A DNA stretch of 64,000 nt from Calditrichia bacterium (lineage in GTDB: Bacteria > Calditrichota > Calditrichia > RBG-13-44-9 > J075), in assembly GCA_050633245.1 (NCBI GenBank), contig JBOEGD010000032.1, positions 59,405-123,404 on the forward strand, read 5' to 3'. The position numbers and the translations under genes were made by a program. The notes under the pieces are model-generated. The model did not search any database and had not been told where the DNA came from. It worked only from the letters and a program-made list of their open reading frames with translations. Positions 33,648-50,274 of this stretch are shown here, one piece after another. Positions within the stretch are counted from its first letter, which is position 1. Each line of letters starts with the position of its first letter.

Positions 33648-34901
33648 TTAATGCCAAATAATAGCAGTCGGTTTTTTTTCTATAACCGGCTTTTCTAGTT
33701 GCGCTGGCATAATTATCACAATCGATTCCCGCAAAAAACGCTGTTGGAGAGAACCCTGACTGATTATCAGCCGAGATCGCTGTTGAATTAACACATGTTG
33801 TGTTGGCGAGGGGGATAGATCGTTTTCCAAAGCAGGGGCATTTGCAATTGCAAATCGAGGTGCTGTTGTTAACAGAATGACTCCCATTGCCAAAGCGAAA
33901 ACCGGCGCAGAATAACGAAAAGTATCTTTTCGTTCCGCATTTTGATCAAGAATTCGCACCACGCGCTTTTTTAATGAACCGGAAGATCCCATTGCGGCTA
34001 CATATTCCGGTATTGTCGATCGTTGCTGCATCCAGCTTGCAACGTTTGAAAGGCAGCGAGCGAGATCCAGCGAGCGCCCGGTCTGCTGTAGTGCCCAATC
34101 ATCACATAGATATTCGGCTGTTGCTCGCATGCGTAATCTGGCTAAATAGTTAAGTGGTTGAAAAAAGAACAGGGCTTCAACTACGGCAATCAAAGCAAAC
34201 CAAAGCGGATCGCGGCGCACAAGGTGCGCCATTTCATGGGCCAGCACGCTTCGTTGTTGGTGGGTGTCCATAGTATCCAGAACCTGTTTGGGAAGACATA
34301 TCTCTTTATGAGAGATGGCAAGTGGACTGGTAATATGCTCAGAACTAGTCAATATAACATCTGGCCGGTAACCGGAATTGTTTTTGATCGCGCTAACAGA
34401 CCCCAAAATTGACCTGTCCGTTACCAGAGTTCTGGGAGTGCGGCGTACTGCCCAATAAGAAAAAAACAGACGAATTAGACCAACTATTGCGAGGAAGCTC
34501 CAACCTGCCAAAAACAATAAAGGCCACGAAAAAGTTGCTGCTGCAGCAGGCTCAAGTTGTGGAGTATGGCGAATATTGCTATTCCGGAAGTAGAATTGAG
34601 AACCGTTAAGGCTCGTTCCGCTTATCTGGATTGTTTCAATCTGTTGAGATGGTTGTGGGGGCTGAGCATGCGAAACTTCTGTGGCTTGGGGAAACAGAAA
34701 AGACCCGCCAATTGGAGCTAAGTCTCCGGCTGTTTGCATTGTTGCGGTTATGAAACCGGTAAGCAGCGCCGCTTTTAAAAGGGTGTTTTGCAATCGTAGT
34801 TGCCTCTGATCGAGAACAAAGGATATTCCCAGAATGGTCAAAAGAATGATGCTGCTGTGAATACTATAGGTAAGCACCCACGTCATGACGACGTCACTCA
34901 T
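33648..34901 (-). CDS. BlaR1/M56-family metallopeptidase (no penicillin-binding domain)
   Basis: TM segments, HEMAH zinc motif, FFFQPL, EYLCDD, LKKRV. Confidence 0.88.
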   Translation of the reverse strand: MSDVVMTWVLTYSIHSSIILLTILGISFVLDQRQLRLQNTLLKAALLTGFITATMQTAGDLAPIGGSFLFPQATEVSHAQPPQPSQQIETIQISGTSLNGSQFYFRNSNIRHTPQLEPAAAATFSWPLLFLAGWSFLAIVGLIRLFFSYWAVRRTPRTLVTDRSILGSVSAIKNNSGYRPDVILTSSEHITSPLAISHKEICLPKQVLDTMDTHQQRSVLAHEMAHLVRRDPLWFALIAVVEALFFFQPLNYLARLRMRATAEYLCDDWALQQTGRSLDLARCLSNVASWMQQRSTIPEYVAAMGSSGSLKKRVVRILDQNAERKDTFRYSAPVFALAMGVILLTTAPRFAIANAPALENDLSPSPTQHVLIQQRSRLIISQGSLQQRFLRESIVIIMPAQLEKPVIEKKPTAIIWH

Positions 34902-35289
34902 TGATTTTACCGCCACTTTTTTCACGCTCTTCAATTAAGCGTCGTATATCTTCAAGATCGCTGTTGTTAATTTCAGACTCGCTGACAAGATGATTTACCA
35001 TTGCTTTTACGTCACCTCGAAAAAGCCGGTTCAGTAGATCGCCTACCATAGACTGCTTTACCTCGCCTTCACTGACGCAGGCGCTGTAGAGGTATTGTCT
35101 GCTTTGGGCGCGATGTTTTAAGAGGCCACGTTTTTCGAGGCGAGACAAGATGGTTGCAACGGTAGTTGTGGCAAGAGGGCGAAACCGATTTAGCTTTTCG
35201 TGCACGCAGGCGGCACTGGCTTCGCCTTCTGCCCAGATAATTCGCATAATCTGCATCTGTAAATCGCTGAGTGTGTTATCCTGAGACAT
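34894..35289 (-). CDS. BlaI/MecI/CopY-family repressor
   Basis: LSDLQMQIMRIIW, TTVATILSRLEKRG, YLYSA, LNRLFRG; overlaps the BlaR1 start. Confidence 0.9.
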   Translation of the reverse strand: MSQDNTLSDLQMQIMRIIWAEGEASAACVHEKLNRFRPLATTTVATILSRLEKRGLLKHRAQSRQYLYSACVSEGEVKQSMVGDLLNRLFRGDVKAMVNHLVSESEINNSDLEDIRRLIEEREKSGGKINE

Positions 35290-35310
35290 TTCTACTCCCT
35301 TGCTATTCAA

Positions 35311-35324
35311 ACTACAGGTGTCAT
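35311..35324. promoter_or_regulatory. Putative BlaI operator
   Basis: actacaggtgtcat, near-match to TACA-N2-TGTA just upstream of the BlaI gene. Confidence 0.4.
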
Positions 35325-35448
35325 ATATAGAGCTTACGGTTAGCTGAAAAAGATGTTCCGGCACCGCAGAGAAATTTTAGGATAGTTCTGGTTTTTCTGA
35401 CGTCTATGATAGATAATATGTACTTACTATAAAGATGGAATAGGGAAT

Positions 35449-37260
35449 ATGAATATATTGGGAATTTCGGCTTACTATCACGATAGCGCAGCATGCTTAG
35501 TGCAAGATGGTAAATTGATCTCTGCCGCTCAGGAAGAACGCTTTACTCGCAAGAAACACGATTTTCGCTTCCCCAACAATGCGGTAGACTACTGTTTGAG
35601 AGAAGCGGGGGTCTCTCCTGCCGATATAGACTATGTGGCCTTTTACGATAAACCTTTTTTGAAGTTCGAACGATTGCTGCTCACTTATATCTCGTATGCT
35701 CCGGCCGGGTTACGTTCATTTATCCAGGCAATGCCTTTGTGGTTGAAACAAAAAATCTGGATGAAAGATCTCATTGCCAAGGAATTGGACTATGAGGGCA
35801 AGATATTATTCCCTGAACATCATCAGTCACATGCGGCTTCTGCATTTTTACCATCTCCTTTCGAAGAGGCCGCTATTCTTACGCTTGATGGCGTGGGTGA
35901 ATGGACAACTGCCAGCTATGGCGTTGGGAGTGCCAACAAGCTTGATCTTTTGGCTGAACTGCGCTTCCCGCATTCGCTCGGCTTACTTTATTCGGCATTT
36001 ACTTATTTTACCGGCTTTCGCGTGAACTCCGGGGAATATAAGCTAATGGGGCTTGCCCCCTACGGTGAACCGCGTTATACCGATATTATTTTGAATAAGT
36101 TGATTGATCTGAAAGAAGATGGCTCATTCAAAATGGATATGATGTATTTCAATTATCCGGCGGGCTTGACGATGACCAACCGGCATTTCGCATCACTTTT
36201 TGGCGGTCCTGCCCGCAAACCGGAAAGCGATATTACGCAGCGCGAAATGGATTTGGCGCGTTCGGTTCAGGAAGTAACGGAAGAGATTATGTTGCGCATG
36301 GCGCGACATGTTCACAAAGAAACCGGTCAGAAGAATCTGGTGCTCGCAGGAGGCGTAGCATTGAACTGTGTTGGTAATGGTCGAATTCTACGTGAAGGTC
36401 CTTTCGAAAACGTTTGGATTCAACCCGCAGCCGGCGATGCCGGTGGGGCCTTGGGAGCAGCATTGTTTACTTGGTATCAGTATCTCGACAATCCGAGATC
36501 GCTCAATGATGGTCGCGATCTACAGGCGGGTTCCTATCTTGGTCCGGCATTCGACGACGACAGCACTGAAGCCTGGTTAAACGAAATTGGTGCGCCGTAT
36601 AAACGCTTATCGGATGACGAGTTATTTGATTCGGTCGCAGGCTTAATTGCATCAAATAACGTAATTGGCTGGTTTCAGGGAAGAATGGAGTTTGGCCCGC
36701 GTGCACTCGGAAATCGCAGCATTATTGGTGATGCCCGTTCTACTGAAATGCAGTCAGTTATGAATCTGAAGATAAAATTTCGCGAAAGCTTCCGACCATT
36801 TGCCCCCTCGGTATTGCGTGAAAAAGTAGATAGCTGCTTCGAATTGACGGAGGCGAGCCCATATATGCTGCTGGTTGCCCCGGTAAAGAAGGAACTGCAA
36901 ATTTCTGATGACGAAAGTGATAATCAAGGCCTCGATAAGCTGAAAGTTGCACGATCGACTATTCCTGCTGTTACGCATGTGGACTACTCAGCTCGCGTAC
37001 AAACCGTTGATGCACAGGATAATCCACGTTATCACCGATTAATTTCGACTTTCTACGAAAAAAGCGGCTGCCCAACCATAATCAATACCTCCTTTAATGT
37101 GCGCGGCGAACCGATTGTCTGCACTCCGGAAGAAGCGTTTCGCTGCTTTATGCGCACCAATATGGACTACTTGGTACTTGGTAATATTTTAATCAATAAG
37201 ATCGATCAAAAGCCGCTGGAAGAGTCCGGGGATTGGCGAGATGAATACGAATTGGACTAA
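35449..37260 (+). CDS. Carbamoyltransferase (NodU/CmcH/SxtI family)
   Basis: YHDSAA, QEERFTRKKH, EHHQSHAASA, DGVGE, EYKLMGLAPYG, GGVALN, GRMEFGPRALGNRS, FRESFRPFAP, NTSFNVRGEP. Confidence 0.95.
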   Translation: MNILGISAYYHDSAACLVQDGKLISAAQEERFTRKKHDFRFPNNAVDYCLREAGVSPADIDYVAFYDKPFLKFERLLLTYISYAPAGLRSFIQAMPLWLKQKIWMKDLIAKELDYEGKILFPEHHQSHAASAFLPSPFEEAAILTLDGVGEWTTASYGVGSANKLDLLAELRFPHSLGLLYSAFTYFTGFRVNSGEYKLMGLAPYGEPRYTDIILNKLIDLKEDGSFKMDMMYFNYPAGLTMTNRHFASLFGGPARKPESDITQREMDLARSVQEVTEEIMLRMARHVHKETGQKNLVLAGGVALNCVGNGRILREGPFENVWIQPAAGDAGGALGAALFTWYQYLDNPRSLNDGRDLQAGSYLGPAFDDDSTEAWLNEIGAPYKRLSDDELFDSVAGLIASNNVIGWFQGRMEFGPRALGNRSIIGDARSTEMQSVMNLKIKFRESFRPFAPSVLREKVDSCFELTEASPYMLLVAPVKKELQISDDESDNQGLDKLKVARSTIPAVTHVDYSARVQTVDAQDNPRYHRLISTFYEKSGCPTIINTSFNVRGEPIVCTPEEAFRCFMRTNMDYLVLGNILINKIDQKPLEESGDWRDEYELD

Positions 37261-37685
37261 TGATGATTAAAGAAGATCTACAGTTATTAAAGCAGGCGAC
37301 AACCAGAAAGGTGCTGCGCAGCTTCGGCTTATCTATAGGCGGTGTTCTTCTGGCAATAGCCGCATTTTTATTTTGGAAAGAATCGTCTGCTGCCGTTTAT
37401 TTTACTGTGCCGGGTGCGCTGCTCGTTGTTTTTGGTCTGCTCTTGCCCAATGCCTTAAAGCAATTGTATTGGGGCTGGATGACAGTCGCTCTGGCAATTG
37501 GCTTCGTAATGACGCGCGTTATCTTAACGCTTGTCTACATGCTGGTATTTACACCGGCATCAATGATTGCGAGACTACTGAGCAAGGATTTGTTGGAAGC
37601 AGGTATCGATAAAGAGGCTAAGACGTACTGGAAGAAGCGCGAACAGACTGAATACGATCCGGCATCAACCGAAAATCAATATTAA
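37260..37685 (+). CDS. SxtJ-family membrane protein
   Basis: LRSFG, WMTVA..IG.V, TYW, ENQY C-terminus; translationally coupled to the carbamoyltransferase. Confidence 0.85.
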   Translation: MMIKEDLQLLKQATTRKVLRSFGLSIGGVLLAIAAFLFWKESSAAVYFTVPGALLVVFGLLLPNALKQLYWGWMTVALAIGFVMTRVILTLVYMLVFTPASMIARLLSKDLLEAGIDKEAKTYWKKREQTEYDPASTENQY

Positions 37686-42280: not shown

Positions 42281-43198
42281 ATGAAAAAAAGACTATCCTT
42301 AATGTTAGCCATACTTCTGATGTTTAGTGTAACGATGAGCTGCAACAAGCAGAAGGAGCCACTACGTTTGGCTACCTATACATATTCCACAAATGATCGG
42401 CTGAAGAACTTGCAGCCTCTGGCTGATGATCTCGCAGAACAGCTGAAGAGGCCTGTATCCACAACCAGTTACCCGGATGTGGCATCTTTTATTAAAGGTC
42501 TGAAGTCGAACTCTGTTGATATTGCCTTGATAAATACCTTAGGGTATTTGCTGTTATCTCTGAATAATGAGCACATGAATCCGGTGGCCGTATTAAAAGT
42601 ACGGCAGGATGCGGTGGATAATTATAAGACGGTTTTGTTAACCACTAAAATGGATATTGCAGACCTCGATGATGTAAAAGAAAAGGCTTCGGGCTTGTCG
42701 ATGATGTTCGTTGCCGAGGGATCGACTTCAGGGAATTTAGTGCCACGGCTATTATTTAGTTCAATGGGACTTAATGCACCCAAACAGCAATTTAAACATG
42801 TGAGCTATGGCGGAAATCATACTTCTACATTGGAAAGGCTTCTTGCAGGTGAGGCTGATTTATGCGCAATAGGCAGTAATGAATACTTTAAACAGCTTAA
42901 GGCAGATTCCACCTTAAAAACCGCTACACGCTTACTGTGGATTTCTAAGGAAATACCACTGGGCCCGGTCTTGCTAAACAAGAGATTAGCAAACGATGAG
43001 CAGCAACAAATTACGAAGCGTCTTTTACAACTTCATGATGCAGACGCCTCTGTACTACAGTCAATAAAAGCAGGATGGTCTGAAGCAAAGCAAGCAGAGA
43101 AGTTTTATGCGATCACAGATAACTACTATGACAATTTTCGGATGGTCAATGGGAATACTACCGACCTGGCAGAAATTTTAGCTGCCTTTGTAAAGTAG
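42281..43198 (+). CDS. PhnD/PtxB-like phosphonate/phosphate-binding lipoprotein
   Basis: Lipobox TMSC; STSGNLVP, GNHTS, EIPLGP. Confidence 0.82.
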   Translation: MKKRLSLMLAILLMFSVTMSCNKQKEPLRLATYTYSTNDRLKNLQPLADDLAEQLKRPVSTTSYPDVASFIKGLKSNSVDIALINTLGYLLLSLNNEHMNPVAVLKVRQDAVDNYKTVLLTTKMDIADLDDVKEKASGLSMMFVAEGSTSGNLVPRLLFSSMGLNAPKQQFKHVSYGGNHTSTLERLLAGEADLCAIGSNEYFKQLKADSTLKTATRLLWISKEIPLGPVLLNKRLANDEQQQITKRLLQLHDADASVLQSIKAGWSEAKQAEKFYAITDNYYDNFRMVNGNTTDLAEILAAFVK

Positions 43199-43281
43199 TT
43201 GTTTGTCAACTAACAAGCTTAAAGGTTAAGTTCTTACTGCTGTTTGCTGAAATTAGCCTGCTAAAGATGGGTAAACCGGTA

Positions 43282-43752
43282 TTATATGCTCTCAAAGCGC
43301 TTCAAAATTAGCAAATCGTTCTCGGAGCCTTTGATCTGTTTTAAGTGCAGAATGTGTTGAAGTGAGGCAATATTACAGCCTTTGATAATGCTCTTTTTAG
43401 CGGACAGTTCCTGCCATCTAATGAACGGGCATTCGTAGGTAATATCCAAAGTGAGTTGAGCTCTTTTCGCTCGCAAATAATATTTGTCCTTTAGAAACTC
43501 TGCCTCTACCTGCTCATCCACATCTGACTCCCAAACTGTCACCTTCCATCGATTTTTTCGCAGAAGAAGGATCGCTTTGCGAATTTCTGTCATGTTGTTT
43601 CTGATAATAAGATCGCAGTCCTTAATCGGATAACCTTGCATTTTGTCTGGAAAAAGGCACTTCAGCGCCCAAGTACCGATTGTAACATAAGCGATGTTTT
43701 CAGCTGAGAGCTGGCGAAGAGTGCTTACATATTTTTCAAGATCCATCTCCAT
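43282..43752 (-). CDS. Pol-beta-superfamily nucleotidyltransferase-like protein
   Basis: IGTWAL...KDCDLI..LDI and LKQIKG..DL pattern; ATG overlaps the radical SAM stop (TGATG). Confidence 0.7.
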   Translation of the reverse strand: MEMDLEKYVSTLRQLSAENIAYVTIGTWALKCLFPDKMQGYPIKDCDLIIRNNMTEIRKAILLLRKNRWKVTVWESDVDEQVEAEFLKDKYYLRAKRAQLTLDITYECPFIRWQELSAKKSIIKGCNIASLQHILHLKQIKGSENDLLILKRFESI

Positions 43753-44843
43753 CAGGAAAAGTAATTCCCGATTATATGGTTCTCCGGATCCCAATCCCCA
43801 CAGAGATTTCCATTAGAATGAAAAACAAGCTTCTGCACAACATCCGATTCGTTGCGGCTGATGAGTTCATTATAGCTGGATGTTTCCATAATAACCTCAA
43901 CCTCATCTTTATAGCAAAAATGTTCATTGTAATAGTAATAGCCTGCTTTGCTATGTGCATACTGCCAATGCTTTCGCTGTTCATTGAAATCAGGCATCAC
44001 CTCGACGAGAAGAAGGTCTATTGGAACGCGATTTTGCTCGACCCACATTTTCGTTTTGTTGTTGATATACGTGTCGTCCAGTCTGCTGAGTTCGCGAAAT
44101 ACGACCTGCTTTACGCCAAGTGAAAGCGCCCAGTCGAGATAGCGCTCAACTTCAGAGATGCTATTTATGCCAACCTTTGTAAGGATGCAGGAATTCTTGA
44201 CAGGAACATGTTGCAGAACGGTTTGTATGAGCTGCTCGTAAGCCTGGTTGCGATACACCGGCTCGTTTCTATTGATATACATAATGCTCTGATTAATCGT
44301 ATCGTTATAGTGGCAGCGGGAGATCTCCAGCCGATCGAAACCTGCATCACGAAGGCCATAGATAAGCTCTGGAGAGTTGTGGAGCCCTGAGGAGTTGGTA
44401 TAGAGCACCTTCTCATTAAATTTCGGAACATGGTGGCCACCGAGTGTCTTCAGGAAAGCCAACAGCCATTGCGGATCGCTGGTTGCCTCGAGCCCGGAGA
44501 GACTAAGCCCAATATTTTGAATCGTAGAAAGATCGGCTAAAACGTTTTTTAGTGCCTCAAAATAACGAGTGTAATCTGAAATGGTGTTTTGCGCTGTAAG
44601 AAACTTCTGATGTCTGCGCTGTAGTTCTTCCGAACAAAACCGACAGTGCGCATTACAGCGCGTTGGATTGGCGTAGGGGGTAAAGGTAAGCCCGGAGCGG
44701 ACCTGTTTGTTTTTCCCTTTAAAGGTGGCTGTTTCGGTATTTTTTTCCTGATAGACATCCCATTTTCCAGCTCTTAACTCGAGCAGCTCAAAGTTGTTGT
44801 CCGGATAAACGGTATGATTTCTAAACGTTTGCGTCGTTTGCAT
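43752..44843 (-). CDS. Radical SAM protein, unknown function
   Basis: CNAHCRFC (CX3CX2C), SLSGLEA, YTNSSG, EISRCHY. Confidence 0.9.
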   Translation of the reverse strand: MQTTQTFRNHTVYPDNNFELLELRAGKWDVYQEKNTETATFKGKNKQVRSGLTFTPYANPTRCNAHCRFCSEELQRRHQKFLTAQNTISDYTRYFEALKNVLADLSTIQNIGLSLSGLEATSDPQWLLAFLKTLGGHHVPKFNEKVLYTNSSGLHNSPELIYGLRDAGFDRLEISRCHYNDTINQSIMYINRNEPVYRNQAYEQLIQTVLQHVPVKNSCILTKVGINSISEVERYLDWALSLGVKQVVFRELSRLDDTYINNKTKMWVEQNRVPIDLLLVEVMPDFNEQRKHWQYAHSKAGYYYYNEHFCYKDEVEVIMETSSYNELISRNESDVVQKLVFHSNGNLCGDWDPENHIIGNYFS

Positions 44844-44928
44844 TTTTCACCTATATGTTGTGCAGGTATTAAAATATAATCGATATTGGTTTGAATTGGT
44901 TGCTGCGTCTGCTTTGCGAAGTCATTGG

Positions 44929-45858
44929 CTAGGCGACCATTCGCCCTCTTTTTGCCGCTAATGTTATCGTGACACTCATTCCCGAATTGAATTCCAGAAA
45001 ATCGTTCTCAATTCCATCGCTAAAGATAACGCCATTTCCCGGCATGCCTGATTCAATGCCAAGGGGCTTTGAAGGGTTGATTTTGCCAAAAGTTAGTGTG
45101 GTTCCACAGCCGCCATAAGGATAGGGTTCGCGAACCACGAAATACAAATAGCGGGAATCCCATTTCATGTCCTGCAAAGCGATTCCCGATTGCCCTTTAT
45201 TTAGCCTGTCGGATCCGGCAACCACGCTGCTAAGCCACCCGGTGGAACCAAGCCCCGTGGAAACAAGTATGCCGCTGGATGACTGATATTCCTGCTTTCC
45301 GCCGAACTTAAGGGTGTAGCGCGCTGAAGCATGAGTTTGTTGGCCGATGAAGAAATCGTTTACGGCATGCAGTGTTTGCCCATTGTTTAAGGTCGCATTC
45401 GCCATACTAACTTCGCGAATTGGTCGCTTTTGCTGAATAATTTCATTCAGCACTTTTGACAAATCTGCTGGTGTGAATGGCAATAAGCAACCTTCCCAGC
45501 GTTTCGGGTCGGGATTCAAACCTACCAACCGCTGCTGATCGAGGTATTTAAGTGTATTGGCTGCCAAACCATCCTGCCCCAATGTAAAAACAATGTCATC
45601 TTCACCGAACATGAAGTTTGGCAGGAAATGTCGATCTACCAACTGCACTCGACCAAACTTTTTCAGGCAGGCAATTGTTGTATCAAGAGCTAGATGATAA
45701 GTCTTGTGTTCGATTAGATAATCATCGAAATCGATTCCCATCTGAGTAAGATAAAAACGCGTTTGGCTGATGGTATTATAACGCAGGATTTGTTCATCGA
45801 GCCTGGTTTTTCTGATCACCAGCACAAAACGATGGTCGTTAGTTGCCATATTTATCAT
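44929..45858 (-). CDS. NAD-kinase-like (ATP-NAD/'sugar kinase') protein
   Basis: LGQDGL (GGDG variant), VNDFFIG, SSGILVSTGLGSTGW, FSDGIE. Confidence 0.85.
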   Translation of the reverse strand: MINMATNDHRFVLVIRKTRLDEQILRYNTISQTRFYLTQMGIDFDDYLIEHKTYHLALDTTIACLKKFGRVQLVDRHFLPNFMFGEDDIVFTLGQDGLAANTLKYLDQQRLVGLNPDPKRWEGCLLPFTPADLSKVLNEIIQQKRPIREVSMANATLNNGQTLHAVNDFFIGQQTHASARYTLKFGGKQEYQSSSGILVSTGLGSTGWLSSVVAGSDRLNKGQSGIALQDMKWDSRYLYFVVREPYPYGGCGTTLTFGKINPSKPLGIESGMPGNGVIFSDGIENDFLEFNSGMSVTITLAAKRGRMVA

Positions 45859-45865
45859 CCTTTAA

Positions 45866-46882
45866 TCAGGAGTTTTGCGGTGTTATTAATTCTTTTAACA
45901 AGTCTGGCGTAATGTTTAGCTGTCCAATACGCTGAGCGTTTTCGGCGAGCTCCTGAAATGCCAGTGCCACCATCTGCCCCGGTGCCATTCCTACGGAAGC
46001 GAGTGCCTGTAGACTTCCGGCATCGATTGTTTTTAGCGTATCCAGAGTCTTAGCCAGCTCGTAAATTCGGGTGTCCGCTTCAATGCGTCCATTCTCTGCT
46101 GATTTTTTGATCAGTGTGGTTTTATCATTTTCCAGCTCCTGTTTAAATGCAAGGCTTGCCTTTTCCAGGTCGAACTTCTTTGCCTGCATCTCCTGCTTGC
46201 CGGCGATACGCGTTTTTTCTATTTGCTGCTTTTTGTTCTCGATGGCGATTTCGGTATTGAGTTCATTCTCTTTTATTGCCCGCTCCTGTGCAATTGCCGA
46301 GTTCCTGCGGATATAAATAGCATCATCTGCTTCCTGTAGCAGTTTCTCTCGCATTTCAGCTTCCAGGGCTCGTGCCGTTTCCGGCGTTGGACGAACGGCC
46401 AGAATCGCCAGGCCCATTATTTCCAACCCAAGAGCCTCAAGCTCCGGTGCAGAGCTCAACTTACCCAGAACAATTTTGGATAAGGAATCACTAACGCCCA
46501 TGGCCTCACGAAGACTGGTTTTGCGTAGCTCTGCGCGAATGAGTACCTGTAAGACAGCAATGAGCCGCTGTGGTAGCCGTTCATTGTCGCTGCACTGATA
46601 ATCGCCTCTCGGGTTTAGGGAATAGTCCAGGCATTCTGCCGTCTTATGTGGCGATTTTATTCGCCAGGTGAGCTGTCCTTGAATTGTAATGGTTTGAAAA
46701 TCACTGGTCGTCTCTTCGAATATGAAGGGCATCTCTTTACTTTCGGTGGGAATTGCGACCAGTGAGGAGGTAGGGGCGAAGTAAAAAAACGACAGCCCAT
46801 GACCTTCCCGAATGATCTGTCCTTTTTGATACTGGAAAACATACGTGGACGGATTAAACTTTGCAAATTTGAATCCAAACAT
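45866..46882 (-). CDS. SPFH/Band-7 domain protein with coiled-coil tail
   Basis: GHGLSFFY, TSDFQTITIQGQLTW, ARALEA..RE.LLQEADDAIY.RR, IGQLNITPDLL. Confidence 0.9.
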   Translation of the reverse strand: MFGFKFAKFNPSTYVFQYQKGQIIREGHGLSFFYFAPTSSLVAIPTESKEMPFIFEETTSDFQTITIQGQLTWRIKSPHKTAECLDYSLNPRGDYQCSDNERLPQRLIAVLQVLIRAELRKTSLREAMGVSDSLSKIVLGKLSSAPELEALGLEIMGLAILAVRPTPETARALEAEMREKLLQEADDAIYIRRNSAIAQERAIKENELNTEIAIENKKQQIEKTRIAGKQEMQAKKFDLEKASLAFKQELENDKTTLIKKSAENGRIEADTRIYELAKTLDTLKTIDAGSLQALASVGMAPGQMVALAFQELAENAQRIGQLNITPDLLKELITPQNS

Positions 46883-46932
46883 AACGCGCTCCTTTGAGTT
46901 GCTTTTCTGTACTGCTCTAATAGATTGTAAAT

Positions 46933-46961
46933 ATAATAGTGTATAAACAACACTAAGTCAA
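46933..46961 (-). promoter_or_regulatory. Sigma70 promoter of the SPFH gene cluster
   Basis: Minus strand TTGACT-N17-TATTAT. Confidence 0.75.
46936..46956. promoter_or_regulatory. NrtR-type operator palindrome
   Basis: aTAGTGT-ataaaca-ACACTAa, a 21-bp GT-N7-AC palindrome filling the promoter spacer. Confidence 0.7.
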
Positions 46962-47113
46962 GCATGATTTATTTTATCTTAATTAGAACAGTAGGATGGA
47001 GTGGGAGAGCTAATCTGGCTTTCCCCTGAAAAGATAGAGACTTAGTTAAGTTAGAAGACCTATTCGTTCAAATTGAACCGGGCTCATATTTCCGATTCCT
47101 GAGTGAATTCGTT

Positions 47114-47162
47114 TTCTGTATTCTGTATTCTGTTCTCTGTATTCTGTATTCTGTTCTCTGTT
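47114..47162. repeat. TTCTGTA/CTCTGT heptamer array
   Basis: ttctgtattctgtattctgttctctgtattctgtattctgttctctgtt. Confidence 0.85.
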
Positions 47163-47186
47163 ATCCCTTTCATCCATGTTCTAAAT

Positions 47187-47220
47187 AAAAAAAGGTGGAT
47201 AGCATTTGCTATCCACCTTT
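47187..47220 (-). terminator. Terminator after tRNA-Asp
   Basis: aaaggtggatagca-tt-tgctatccaccttt perfect stem with A-run. Confidence 0.85.
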
Positions 47221-47228
47221 AAACTGTG

Positions 47229-47303
47229 CGGGGCCGACGAGATTCGAACTCGCGACCTCCGGCGTGACAGGCCGGCGTTCTAACCGGGCTGAACTACGAC
47301 CCC
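47229..47303 (-). tRNA. tRNA-Asp(GTC)
   Basis: Minus strand GGGGTCGTAGTTCAGCCCGGTTAGAACGCCGGCCTGTCACGCCGGAGGTCGCGAGTTCGAATCTCGTCGGCCCCG; cloverleaf, anticodon GTC, CCA not encoded. Confidence 0.97.
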
Positions 47304-47318
47304 ACAGTTAAGAGGCAA

Positions 47319-47347
47319 AAATATAGGCCGTTGTTTATACAAATGCA
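47319..47347 (-). promoter_or_regulatory. Sigma70 promoter of tRNA-Asp
   Basis: Minus strand TTGCAT-N17-TATATT. Confidence 0.6.
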
Positions 47348-47371
47348 AGCTATTTTTTGTAGAAAATCATC

Positions 47372-48736
47372 TTAATTCAGATCATGTTTCTTTAGCTTCG
47401 ACATAAAGGTGCTTCTATGAATATTAAGAACCTCTGCAGTGCGTTTTTTGTTGTTCTTGTTTTCTTCAAGAGCACGTGTAATAAGCTTTTTCTCGTAATT
47501 ATCAACCATTTCGGTTAACGATACTCCCGATGCGATATCAACTCCGGGAAGGCTGAGTGGGCGTTGCTTTTGCAGGGTAGAAGGTAAATCCCGCGCATGA
47601 ATAACGTCGGACTTACCAAGGGCAATTCCTCGCTCTATTGCATTCTCCAGCTCCCGGATATTACCGGGCCATGGGTAGGCTTGTAGAACTTCCATGGCTT
47701 CATTGGAAATCCCGTGAAATTCCTTGGACAGCTTTTTGTTGTATTTTTCCACGAAATGTGAAACCAGTAGTGGAATATCATCAATACGTTCACGCAGTGG
47801 CGGCACATCTATTTGAATAACATTTAGACGGAAGTAGAGATCCTGACGAAAGCGTCCGGCGTCCATTGCTTCTTCAAGATTCGCATTTGTAGCGGAGATT
47901 ATTCGGGTGTCTACCTTATTTACCTGTGTGCTACCAACACGCTCAATTTCTTGTTGTTGTATGGCACGAAGCAGCTTTACCTGTAAACTAACGTCAATTT
48001 CACCAATTTCATCCAGAAAAAGTGTGCCGCCATCGGCTAATTCAAACTTACCTGGCTTGTCTTTTATCGCATGGGTAAAGGCGCCTTTTACATGTCCAAA
48101 TAACTCACTTTCTAACAGGCTTTCGGGAATTGCTCCGCAGTTCACGGTAACCAGTCTCTTTTTGACGCGACTGGAATGGAAGTGAATGGCTTTTGCTATT
48201 AGCTCTTTACCGGTGCCGTTTTCGCCACGAATGAGAACTGTGGAAGGTGTTTCAGATATGGCTTTGATTAAATCAAACAGCTCAAGCATTTTTGTATTGC
48301 GACCAATAATATTGTCGAAGCCAAAGGTGTTTTTCAATTGTTGATGCAGGTAGGTGTTTTCGCGCATCAATGATTTAAGCTCGGCCATCGTTTCTACTTT
48401 GGAAACGATTTCGTCGAAACGCAGTGGTTTTAGAATATAATCTTTAGCGCCCTTTTTCATAGCCTCGACGGCTGTTTCAATTGTGCCATGCGCAGTGATC
48501 ATCATGACGGCTAAATCGGGATATTCTTTTTGCGCAAGATCTAGCAGCTCCATGCCATTCATTTCCGGCATCTGCATATCCGAAATAAGAATGTCCGGTT
48601 CTTGAGAGCGAAGAATGCTCATCGCTTCCATTCCGTTCTGGGCGGTAATCGTTTCATAACCGTGCTGAACGAAAAGCTCTTCCATTAGGTCCAAGGCATC
48701 AACTTCATCATCGACGATAAGAATGCGTGTTTTCAA
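47372..48736 (-). CDS. Sigma54-dependent NtrC-family response regulator
   Basis: REC (VDDE, SDMQMP, KP), GENGTGKE, ESELFGHVKGAFTHA, FLDEIGE, FRQDLYFRL, WPGNIREL, Fis-type HTH. Confidence 0.95.
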   Translation of the reverse strand: MKTRILIVDDEVDALDLMEELFVQHGYETITAQNGMEAMSILRSQEPDILISDMQMPEMNGMELLDLAQKEYPDLAVMMITAHGTIETAVEAMKKGAKDYILKPLRFDEIVSKVETMAELKSLMRENTYLHQQLKNTFGFDNIIGRNTKMLELFDLIKAISETPSTVLIRGENGTGKELIAKAIHFHSSRVKKRLVTVNCGAIPESLLESELFGHVKGAFTHAIKDKPGKFELADGGTLFLDEIGEIDVSLQVKLLRAIQQQEIERVGSTQVNKVDTRIISATNANLEEAMDAGRFRQDLYFRLNVIQIDVPPLRERIDDIPLLVSHFVEKYNKKLSKEFHGISNEAMEVLQAYPWPGNIRELENAIERGIALGKSDVIHARDLPSTLQKQRPLSLPGVDIASGVSLTEMVDNYEKKLITRALEENKNNKKRTAEVLNIHRSTFMSKLKKHDLN

Positions 48737-50274
48737 TTTGAATTGTCCTCCAGTGGTAGCGAGAGCCGTTTGTTTGCCCGATGCGGTTTTTCAGATGTAT
48801 TCGTCAAATCGAGCTCTTGCTGAAACCCTTTTACACCTGCTACAGCAAACTGCAGCTTTAAAAGTTTGTTCTTCTCATCTGAACTATCGATGAAAAGCTT
48901 GCCATCAAAGTTAGAGAAGATGGTATAAGCCAGAGCAGCGTCCAAAACAGAATGTTTTGTATGCTCTAATTTTTCAAATGTCTCAAAAAATCCGTCAGGA
49001 ATATCCAGATCCTTGATGTTAATCTGAAGTTCAAGGCAGGGTGGATTTGTTGACGTACAAAGTAGGTGGCAAAGGATAGACACCGGCTTAGTTGACTCTA
49101 ATAGATTATCCAGAGTACGAAACAAATACGTAAATCCATCCTGAAACTGATTTTCATTTCCCCGAATAAGAATATCTTGCCAATTCTTTTGATATTTCAG
49201 CTTGAATTGCAAGCTCGTTTTGATATGCTGGCCTGCAAGAATACCTTCGAGAAACTGGATTAACCCAAATACCTCGGGAATTGAGTCTTCTTTGTTGTGA
49301 TTGAATTTTCGCAGCTGGCTGATAATTTCGTCAATTCGATCTACCTGCTTATGTACAATGTCCATTGAACGTATGCTATCTTCGGGCATAACCTTCTGCA
49401 TTAATTGAAGTCGCCCCATTAGGATATTTACAGGATTGTGGATTTCATGAGCTAATGCCTGCGATAGATATTTGATGACGTTGAATTTCTCCCGCCGTAA
49501 TAGTTGATTAAAAACCAGGTCGCTAATGGTGCGATTTTCCATAGTAATAATTAAACCTTTTACATAACCGGCGGAAGAATAAAAAAAGTCTGCATTCAGG
49601 TTTGCGTCAATGAATTTGCCTTGTGTGTGCTTTATGCTGACGCGGTACCCACGAATTTCTTTACCCATTGTTAAGCGCTGATAGACGTGATGGAGCACTT
49701 TAAAACCGTCATCAAGATAATCCTGTAAATTATGACCGATTAGTTCTTCGCTATCCATGTTTAGAAACTCGCTCAGTACATTATTACAATAATCGATGCA
49801 GAAGTTCTCATTCAGAACGATCACTGCTTCAGTAGAATAATCCAGCAGATTTTTGTAGTACTGTAACATTACGGCAGCATCTTTGCTCTCTACCTCGAAC
49901 TTATGCTGTCGAGCCAGACAATGTTTGTATTGGACAACAATCGCCGCCAAACGTGCCGGGGAGAGTGGATCGAAAAGAAGGAGGTCGAATTCATTTTCCT
50001 GATACGTTTCCTCAAATTGATCACTTTTTTCGTCCACCCAATAAGCAAAGTGCAAGATCGGATTTTTGCTGCGCATTGTTGCGAGTTTCTTTTTACCCGT
50101 CGATGTTAAATAGCTGGAGTCGACAATGGCAATATCTGCATTCGTCGCATCGGACGAAGCAGACTTTGTTTCGGGTATCAACTTCCAGGTTGTTTGCTCG
50201 GAAATTCTCTTGAATTGCTCCCGTCGAGTTTGATCATTCGTCAAGAGCATAAGATTTACGCATGTGCTACTCAT
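48733..50274 (-). CDS. PAS/HisKA protein with degenerate ATPase domain
   Basis: Receiver-like N-terminus, PAS, H-box LAHEIHNPV; no recognisable N/G1/G2 boxes; overlaps the NtrC gene start. Confidence 0.75.
   Translation of the reverse strand: MSSTCVNLMLLTNDQTRREQFKRISEQTTWKLIPETKSASSDATNADIAIVDSSYLTSTGKKKLATMRSKNPILHFAYWVDEKSDQFEETYQENEFDLLLFDPLSPARLAAIVVQYKHCLARQHKFEVESKDAAVMLQYYKNLLDYSTEAVIVLNENFCIDYCNNVLSEFLNMDSEELIGHNLQDYLDDGFKVLHHVYQRLTMGKEIRGYRVSIKHTQGKFIDANLNADFFYSSAGYVKGLIITMENRTISDLVFNQLLRREKFNVIKYLSQALAHEIHNPVNILMGRLQLMQKVMPEDSIRSMDIVHKQVDRIDEIISQLRKFNHNKEDSIPEVFGLIQFLEGILAGQHIKTSLQFKLKYQKNWQDILIRGNENQFQDGFTYLFRTLDNLLESTKPVSILCHLLCTSTNPPCLELQINIKDLDIPDGFFETFEKLEHTKHSVLDAALAYTIFSNFDGKLFIDSSDEKNKLLKLQFAVAGVKGFQQELDLTNTSEKPHRANKRLSLPLEDNSN

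Follow-up and report, generated by a model that had tools for sequence, protein, structure and literature searches.

Background

For many bacteria, the main map of how nicotinamide adenine dinucleotide (NAD) is rebuilt after its consumption is given by the NrtR regulons. In the parts of the comparative study by Rodionov et al. (2008; PMC2330246) that are used here, most NrtR motifs are described as 21-bp palindromes with a GT-N7-AC core, gel shifts are reported for two NrtR proteins, and NAD-salvage operons such as nrtR-prs-nadV and nrtR-pncA-pncB carry this palindrome at the promoter. Table 1 of the same paper tabulates a divergon, written "nrtR<#>nrtX-nrtY" and with its function given as "?", for Proteus mirabilis, Hahella, Streptomyces, Kineococcus and Frankia. 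Radical-SAM chemistry is not among the NAD pathways described in these parts of the paper, and the radical SAM and nucleotidyltransferase (NTase) families considered below are not in its regulon table. We describe here a four-gene locus in a 64,000-nucleotide stretch of DNA from a Calditrichia bacterium (assembly GCA_050633245.1, contig JBOEGD010000032.1, positions 59,405 to 123,404 of the forward strand; the whole stretch is hereafter called the window), in which apparent counterparts of nrtX and nrtY, encoding an SPFH protein and a kinase, are followed by genes for a radical SAM enzyme and a small NTase.

We consider it probable (about 0.6) that this locus is a single transcription unit composed of two independently conserved two-gene modules with a common NrtR-type regulator, i.e., an NAD-homeostasis operon derepressed by ADP-ribose. 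The two gene pairs are tied together because the regulator appears to be common to both, and not because of synteny. Orthologues of both the SPFH-kinase pair and the radical SAM gene in other genomes carry similar sites and/or adjoin nrtR genes, which is the evidence that comparative genomics uses to assign genes to an NrtR regulon. The best-supported reading of these sequence comparisons is that the radical SAM-NTase cassette is a previously unlisted member of the NrtR regulon in several lineages.

Gene organization and promoter of the locus

All four genes are co-oriented on the minus strand. The first encodes an SPFH/Band-7 protein of 338 amino acids (aa) with a long coiled-coil-like C-terminal half (45866-46882), the second an NADK2-like protein of the NAD-kinase superfamily (309 or 306 aa; 44929-45858), the third a radical SAM enzyme of an unnamed family (363 aa; 43752-44843), and the fourth a minimal NTase of the Pol-beta superfamily (156 aa from the ATG of a TGATG overlap; 43282-43752). 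The SPFH and kinase genes are 7 nt apart, a distance that becomes 16 nt if translation of the kinase starts from codon 4, as it does for the 306-aa protein in the database (P0121); a spacer of 85 nt (44844-44928, minus strand) lies between the kinase and radical SAM genes; and the radical SAM and NTase genes share the TGATG overlap typical of translational coupling, with a second ATG 6 nt downstream that is the start codon in a 154-aa database version of the NTase (P0241). The later start codons in these database versions leave the gene picture unchanged. An earlier reading of the window from its letters alone (the sequence-only reading) had reported four co-oriented genes with gaps of 7 and 85 nt and TGATG coupling, all of which was confirmed from the open reading frames (ORFs) and the sequence.

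The TTGACT-N17-TATTAT promoter of that reading is likewise present, as a sigma-70-type promoter at 46961-46933 (minus strand), 51 nt 5' of the SPFH start codon. It agrees with the consensus at 10 of 12 positions and is the best promoter match in the region 43000-47400; as the 5 promoter-like matches in this region do not exceed the 6.6 expected from shuffled sequence, the promoter match alone is not above chance. Its 17-nt spacer is occupied by the palindrome TAGTGTTGTTTATACACTA (46955-46937; TAGTGT-tgtttat-ACACTA), and the candidate NrtR-type operator in its full extent (cTTAGTGT-tgtttat-ACACTAtt; 46935-46957, no strand assigned) fills the spacer and overlaps the -10 box. The exact form TAGTGT-N7-ACACTA occurs once in the 64-kb window. 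When scored against TTAGTGT-N7-ACACTAA, the window site (TTAGTGT-tgtttat-ACACTAt) reaches 13/14, as did only 1 of 5000 random windows of 156 nt, and it shows the operator features given in the cited parts of PMC2330246, i.e., a 21-bp palindrome with a GT-N7-AC core in a promoter region. Two other operators, the enterobacterial NadR operator (TGTTTA-N6-TAAACA) and the NadQ motif (ttATRCTCannntGAGYATaa), were rejected as they differ in spacing or sequence from the sites found here.

The SPFH-kinase pair and its correspondence to nrtX-nrtY

The layout of the Proteus mirabilis locus is nrtR<>X-Y, exactly as tabulated in the part of PMC2330246 used here, and the window proteins are 41% (SPFH) and 51% (kinase) identical to the products of the P. 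mirabilis nrtR-neighbour genes, over nearly their full length and in the same order. Because of this match between the Proteus layout and the table entry, together with the 41% and 51% identities, we identify the window SPFH gene as the apparent nrtX and the kinase gene as the apparent nrtY; the cited passages do not name protein families, so that the assignment follows from the matching layout. As compared to the tabulated divergon, the window has the same gene pair and a similar palindrome at the promoter, but it has no nrtR gene adjacent to the pair and carries two extra genes after the kinase.

An SPFH gene was found directly upstream of the kinase gene in all six kinase loci inspected (Rhizobium lentis, Cupriavidus necator, Moraxella osloensis, Providencia alcalifaciens, a Streptomyces yangpuensis plasmid and Proteus mirabilis), and a divergent NrtR gene (Nudix and NrtR_WHD domains) was adjacent in five of them, the exception being the Streptomyces plasmid. 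The NrtR calls were made with Pfam for Rhizobium and Cupriavidus and with tblastn for Moraxella, Providencia and Proteus. Between nrtR and the SPFH gene, the loci from Rhizobium, Moraxella, Providencia and Proteus (L065, L067, L068 and L070) together carry 12 sites that score at least 11/14 against TTAGTGT-N7-ACACTAA. The promoter palindrome of the window thus resembles those in four of the five nrtR/SPFH intergenic regions, and two points of the sequence-only reading, namely the statement that SPFH and NAD-kinase-like genes are paired at NrtR loci and the assignment of an NrtR-type operator, agree with these neighborhoods and with the Proteus entry in the cited table (PMC2330246).

The SPFH protein matches Pfam Band_7 with an E-value of 1.2e-12. 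A profile built from 12 members of the kinase family matches human mitochondrial NADK2 (E = 1.2e-13) and yeast POS5 (E = 6e-4), and the segments G-Q-D-G and S-T-G-x-G-x-T-G-W are invariant in the family alignment. Compared to the NAD kinases PpnK, NADK2 and POS5, the family thus keeps a GxDG motif and the glycine-rich STGxGxTGW segment along with the NADK2 profile match, but it is always paired with SPFH, falls far below the NCBIfam NAD-kinase equivalog cut-offs (weak scores of 16-22 bits against cut-offs of 211-309) and has no Pfam match, including to NAD_kinase, even at an E-value of 10. The family is large, with at least 7564 clusters at an E-value of 0.001 or better among 8000 candidates scored, and annotators have named its members "sugar kinase" or "NAD kinase". 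The kinase gene was also detected by tblastn in 70 plasmid-database records. Full-text searches found no literature on NrtR together with SPFH or on SPFH together with "NAD kinase", and they found no later functional work on nrtX-nrtY, with the listed matches to "nrtX" being unrelated uses only.

Some copies of the pair lie beside resistance genes. The nrtR-SPFH-kinase unit is located directly beside the tetracycline efflux gene tet(H) on a Moraxella osloensis plasmid (L067:2100-6847) and directly beside the tetracycline efflux gene tet(J) in the Proteus mirabilis record (L070:1103-5834), while in several small plasmids the kinase gene is reduced to 3' fragments (hits H55-H60).

Distribution and neighborhoods of the radical SAM-NTase cassette

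A scan of 185,579 species-representative genomes with two exact peptide patterns taken from the radical SAM alignment gave at least 64 radical SAM loci, which is a lower bound. These loci were found in Bacteroidota and Myxococcota, with single Blastocatellia, Nocardia, Bdellovibrionales and other records. An NTase gene was detected in 42 of the 64 loci by tblastn and in 49 by a profile hidden Markov model (HMM); with the latter, it directly followed the radical SAM gene in 48 loci, was 1.2 kb away in one (L036) and was not found in 15, including L063, whose contig stops where the radical SAM match does. In one Polyangiaceae metagenome-assembled genome (MAG), the two proteins are encoded by one ORF of 539 aa, in which the two matches share a frame (L061:6947-8566, plus strand), a fusion that could also represent an assembly error of the MAG. 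In 23 of the 64 loci (Myxococcota-type; L030, L034, L036-L047, L049-L054, L056, L057 and L023), a protein of approx. 700 aa with two TauD/TfdA dioxygenase domains is encoded directly upstream and co-oriented, giving a three-gene form of the cassette, while the flanking genes in the other radical SAM loci are unrelated housekeeping genes.

Homologues of the SPFH and kinase genes were found in none of the 64 radical SAM loci (tblastn, E-value 1e-3). As 48 of 64 loci have the NTase gene directly next to the radical SAM gene and none has an SPFH or kinase gene, the radical SAM and NTase genes are a separate, self-contained cassette and not part of one four-gene unit. In place of the single four-gene module of the sequence-only reading we thus see two modules with an apparently common regulator.

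NrtR-type sites upstream of radical SAM genes in other genomes

Of 62 loci, ten (L001, L002, L006, L007, L010, L011, L033, L035, L048 and L061) have a site scoring at least 11/14 against TTAGTGT-N7-ACACTAA within the 150 nt that precede the radical SAM gene, as compared to 30 of 5000 random windows (0.6%; binomial P about 5e-12). These sites start 25-49 nt before the radical SAM start codon. When the window palindrome was used as the probe, a match at a minimum of 10 out of 12 positions was found within 350 nt upstream of the gene in 9 of 64 radical SAM loci, as compared to 14 of 2000 random windows (P about 8e-10). The site in the high-GC Polyangiaceae MAG is a perfect TTAGTGT-N7-ACACTAA located 25 nt before the fusion ORF, and another locus (L013) shows a TTGCGTA-N5-TACGCAA variant upstream of its radical SAM gene. 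A weight matrix was built from the sites upstream of radical SAM genes and the window site. When 902,590 bases were searched with it, only two sites in addition to its 11 training sites scored at least 20, i.e., the intergenic site between nrtR and the SPFH gene in Rhizobium and the L061 site.

Two loci place a distant radical SAM homologue beside nrtR itself. In L063 (70-3870) the order is nrtR, a divergent gene for a phosphoribosyltransferase-like protein, nadV and the radical SAM gene, and in L060 (2159-6342) it is nrtR, an isochorismatase (PncA-like) gene, a NadM-Nudix gene, the radical SAM gene and a methyltransferase gene. Compared to the NrtR-controlled NAD-salvage operons (nrtR-prs-nadV, nrtR-pncA-pncB) in the cited parts of PMC2330246, the window locus has in common the 21-bp GT-N7-AC palindrome at the promoter, and radical SAM homologues in other genomes lie downstream of nadV or nadM-Nudix genes beside nrtR, but none of the four window genes encodes a recognized enzyme of NAD biosynthesis or salvage. 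Full-text searches found no literature linking NrtR with "radical SAM".

Are the two modules linked or merely adjacent?

The nearest database relatives of the window proteins, where named, come from Calditrichota (64% identity for the radical SAM protein, 72% for the kinase and 55% for the NTase). Two consecutive locus tags (AAFP70_01605 and AAFP70_01610) and contigs of equal size (6204, 3845 and 3681) among the relatives of different window genes suggest that the kinase, radical SAM and NTase genes stay together in two or three of these relatives.

A chance juxtaposition would be the simplest alternative to a common regulator. Under this explanation, the nrtX-nrtY operon would stop after the kinase, the radical SAM and NTase genes would be unrelated to it and transcribed from a promoter of their own that has escaped recognition, and the palindromes in other genomes would bind a different regulator. 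The complete lack of SPFH and kinase genes from the 64 radical SAM loci is what such an accident would produce, as is the palindrome being missing from 52 of 62 radical SAM loci. Among plasmid records, none carries both the kinase and the radical SAM gene; the one strong radical SAM match is in Hymenobacter, and for the 70 records with a kinase gene this genus is named neither in the organism breakdown nor in the list of 57 distinct records. The gap between the modules is 85 nt, and a second, weak palindrome (11/14; 44958-44978) is located within the 3'-terminal part of the kinase gene, 115 nt upstream of the radical SAM start; a site of this quality is, however, at chance level for a window of 64 kb, and no terminator-like or promoter-like site is found on the coding (minus) strand of the gap. 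Moreover, an accident would not account for the form TTAGTGT-N7-ACACTAA being common to the sites upstream of radical SAM genes and the sites beside bona fide nrtR genes, for the recovery of the Rhizobium nrtR divergon site by a matrix from radical SAM sites, or for the placement of radical SAM genes directly in nrtR/NAD-salvage operons in L060 and L063. Overall, we regard chance juxtaposition as unlikely.

Several results nevertheless weigh against a common NrtR-type regulator. No NrtR gene was found in the 64-kb window (43 large ORFs; tblastn with three NrtR queries), and an NrtR-type regulator is for this reason assumed to be encoded elsewhere in the genome. The radical SAM loci that lack a palindrome include most Hymenobacter loci and the TauD-carrying Myxococcota loci, and the regions upstream of the TauD-fusion genes (20 loci) showed no consistent palindrome and none of the NrtR type. 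The ten positive loci fall into approx. six related groups and are therefore not independent events. The background windows were drawn from the same loci and are of mixed GC content; among the 12 loci with less than 50% GC, 3 were positive, as compared to 1.2% of background windows (P = 4e-4). The NrtR-adjacent regions of L063 and L066 stay below 10/14 against TTAGTGT-N7-ACACTAA, with L063 showing variants that resemble TAGT-N11-ACTA, and the palindromes may belong to another regulator. Finally, linkage of the two modules is directly seen in this window only, and may extend to two metagenomic relatives, judging solely by their contigs of equal size.

Properties of the radical SAM protein

The window protein is a member of the radical SAM superfamily, as indicated by its CX3CX2C motif and its fold matches. 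It carries the sequence CNAHCRFC (CNAHCxFC is invariant in the family), with the three cysteines of the CX3CX2C motif (C63, C67 and C70) invariant in 16 aligned sequences; in the same alignment, C219 is the sole other invariant cysteine, with C177 being nearly invariant. The family further shows an invariant GYYYYNE segment and an N-terminal beta-rich extension. The Pfam Radical_SAM score (25.5 bits) is below the cut-off of 29.5. An AlphaFold2 model (mean predicted local distance difference test [pLDDT] score 88.8) gave 140 fold matches in the PDB at an E-value of 0.001 or better, and all of the matches listed are radical SAM enzymes; the best was MoaA (E = 4.5e-10, template modeling [TM] score 0.54-0.60), followed by SuiB, DesII, viperins (TM 0.47-0.65) and NifB.

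Assignment to either of the two nucleotide-modifying families was rejected. Identification as MoaA (GTP 3',8-cyclase) fails on TIGR02666 (18.3 bits against 284) and on the absence of the conserved C-terminal cysteine triad, and identification as a prokaryotic viperin fails on NF038283 (18 bits against 180) and on a PADLOC pVip match of only 15.5 bits (E = 0.002). The protein thus resembles both MoaA and viperin in fold and in the canonical CX3CX2C motif, but it shows no conserved cysteine triad near the C-terminus like that for the second [4Fe-4S] cluster of MoaA, and its family differs from both in having its own N-terminal extension and the GYYYYNE segment.

A phage-encoded homologue, 28% identical to the window protein, was found in Dulem virus 40 (L071:5144-7297), between a gene for a putative Fe-S oxidoreductase and a gene for a "NAT SF protein" (acetyltransferase superfamily).

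Properties of the NTase protein

The small protein has no Pfam match even at an E-value of 10. Its model (mean pLDDT 95.3) predicts a minimal Pol-beta nucleotidyltransferase fold, with Foldseek matches to MenT1, JHP933, LnuA, TM1012 and ANT(2'')-Ia (TM 0.6-0.69). Its neighbors in a structural atlas are the DUF6036, DUF2204 and AbiEii clusters (TM 0.75-0.85), which we treat as a lead only, and the best sequence-profile match in the PDB was LnuA (E = 0.37). In an alignment of 27 sequences, G26, D47 and D103 are invariant and D45 is nearly so, giving a G...DxD motif with a third acidic residue. By motif and predicted fold, the protein is thus assigned to the Pol-beta NTase superfamily.

Compared to the minimal NTases LnuA, ANT(2'')-Ia, TM1012/DUF2204, DUF6036 and MenT1/AbiEii, the window protein is similar in fold and size (TM 0.6-0.85) and has the G...DxD motif with the third acidic residue, but it matches no Pfam family and its partner is a radical SAM enzyme, with neither an antitoxin nor a resistance context. 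We rejected a toxin-antitoxin interpretation of the NTase because the partner is a radical SAM enzyme of 363 aa and because one lineage has the two proteins fused.

Anti-phage and biosynthetic interpretations

The likeness of the two cassette proteins to viperin and to MenT1 and AbiEii could be taken to suggest an anti-phage module, in which a viperin-like radical SAM enzyme would make a modified, chain-terminating or signaling nucleotide and a MenT/AbiEii-like NTase would use or install it, with the genes being switched on when infection destroys NAD. Such a role would be compatible with the weak resemblance of the radical SAM protein to viperin in both sequence and fold, with the MenT1 toxin and the AbiEii/DUF2204/DUF6036 clusters being nearest to the NTase fold, with the sporadic distribution of the cassette (at least 64 loci in 185,579 species representatives) and with the distant homologue in a phage genome. 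The best fold match of the radical SAM protein is, however, MoaA and not viperin; the NCBIfam viperin model is matched at one tenth of its cut-off (18 bits against 180); and a PADLOC 2.0 scan of the four window proteins gave no match for three of them and only the low-scoring pVip match for the radical SAM protein.

The neighborhoods of the cassette were scanned in the same way. ORFs of 110 aa or more within 3.5 kb numbered 312, of which the nearest 104 were selected and 19 of these dropped (14 TauD-fusion ORFs, 2 ORFs antisense to TauD-fusions and 3 ORFs longer than 1300 aa), which left 85 ORFs. Only 3 of these matched any PADLOC model, i.e., a PDC-S03 candidate that is Uma2 by Pfam, a generic TPR protein and a generic HEAT protein, and the flanking genes are ordinary housekeeping genes. 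We therefore consider an anti-phage function improbable. The sequence-only reading had raised phage defense as one possible role, which found no credible PADLOC match among the four proteins, and had proposed to look at the neighborhoods of the radical SAM and NTase homologues; this comparison revealed nrtR linkage (L060 and L063) and operator-like sites, but neither synteny with SPFH and kinase genes (0 of 64) nor a defense-island context. The interpretation given in that reading is thus partly supported, with its regulatory idea strengthened; the membrane-scaffold location that it proposed is a conjecture and not among the supported points.

TauD-family and radical SAM enzymes co-occur in nucleoside-antibiotic pathways, and the cassette could also be a small-molecule (nucleoside-type) biosynthesis cassette, for which a specialized metabolite would be the primary product, with the connection to NrtR in some lineages being secondary. 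The double-TauD/TfdA protein, whose gene immediately precedes the radical SAM gene in the same orientation in 23 of 64 loci, fits this idea, as do LnuA and ANT(2''), both small-molecule O-nucleotidyltransferases, among the best fold matches of the NTase. However, the cassette consists of two or three genes only, no further biosynthetic genes are found near the cassette in its Bacteroidota and window forms, and a biosynthetic role leaves both the NrtR-type sites and the NAD-salvage operon contexts unexplained; we consider it unlikely.

Proposed regulation and function

ADP-ribose is a product of NAD breakdown. In the operon model that we prefer, an NrtR-type repressor encoded elsewhere in the genome would bind the single operator in the promoter spacer and occlude RNA polymerase, and ADP-ribose, by analogy with characterized NrtR proteins, would release the repressor and turn on all four genes, with transcription presumably continuing across the 85-nt gap. 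The operon would then serve NAD(P)/ADP-ribose nucleotide homeostasis. Judging by their folds, the kinase may phosphorylate NAD(H) or a close analogue, the MoaA/viperin-like radical SAM enzyme probably transforms a nucleotide or ribosyl substrate, and the LnuA/DUF2204-like NTase, which is coupled to it, may nucleotidylate the substrate or the product of the radical SAM enzyme.

We know of no radical-SAM step in any known NAD pathway. A further and more tentative step, which we think of as possible but would not bet on, is that the cassette represents a new enzymatic branch of NAD/ADP-ribose metabolism induced through NrtR and ADP-ribose. In such a branch, radical chemistry on ADP-ribose, NMN/NaMN or NAD would be followed by nucleotidyl transfer, giving either a new salvage or repair route or an NAD-derived signaling or antiviral nucleotide, with the SPFH-NADK2-like pair acting on the same pool.

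If the link to NrtR is real, radical-SAM chemistry takes part in the handling of NAD or ADP-ribose. Comparison of the window with the tabulated divergon would identify nrtX and nrtY as an SPFH protein and an NADK2-like kinase, and comparative evidence ties a second uncharacterized pair, the radical SAM enzyme and the NTase, to the same type of regulator in several phyla. Were the new branch to exist, it would also provide a first functional handle on nrtX-nrtY, listed with no function in the table of the 2008 paper (PMC2330246). As the cassette consists of two genes, is fused in one lineage and is carried by cultured Hymenobacter and Flavilitoribacter, its function is directly testable both in vitro and genetically.

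Surroundings of the locus

Upstream, the four-gene cluster is bounded on the minus strand by a tRNA-Asp(GTC) gene (47228-47303) followed by an intrinsic terminator with a 13-bp stem (47220-47191; boundary region 47191-47303). An Rfam search of 43000-47400 at an E-value of 0.1 or better found this tRNA only, with no riboswitch or leader RNA. A tandem repeat is located at 47107-47161, between the tRNA-Asp terminator and the operon promoter, and can be described as 2.7 copies of a 21-nt unit or 5.9 copies of the 7-nt unit TTCTGTA. Beyond the tRNA gene lies a two-component pair (47372-50274, minus strand), in which a gene for a sigma-54-dependent response regulator is beside a gene for a PAS/HisKA sensor kinase in which Pfam did not detect a HATPase_c domain. 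These two proteins were set aside as regulators of the operon, as the tRNA gene and the strong terminator intervene and part the cluster from them.

Downstream of the cluster, a PhnD-like gene is convergent with it. Further away in the window, a BlaR1/BlaI-like pair (33648-35364, minus strand) adjoins genes for a carbamoyltransferase and an SxtJ-like small protein (35449-37685, plus strand), an arrangement unrelated to the operon.

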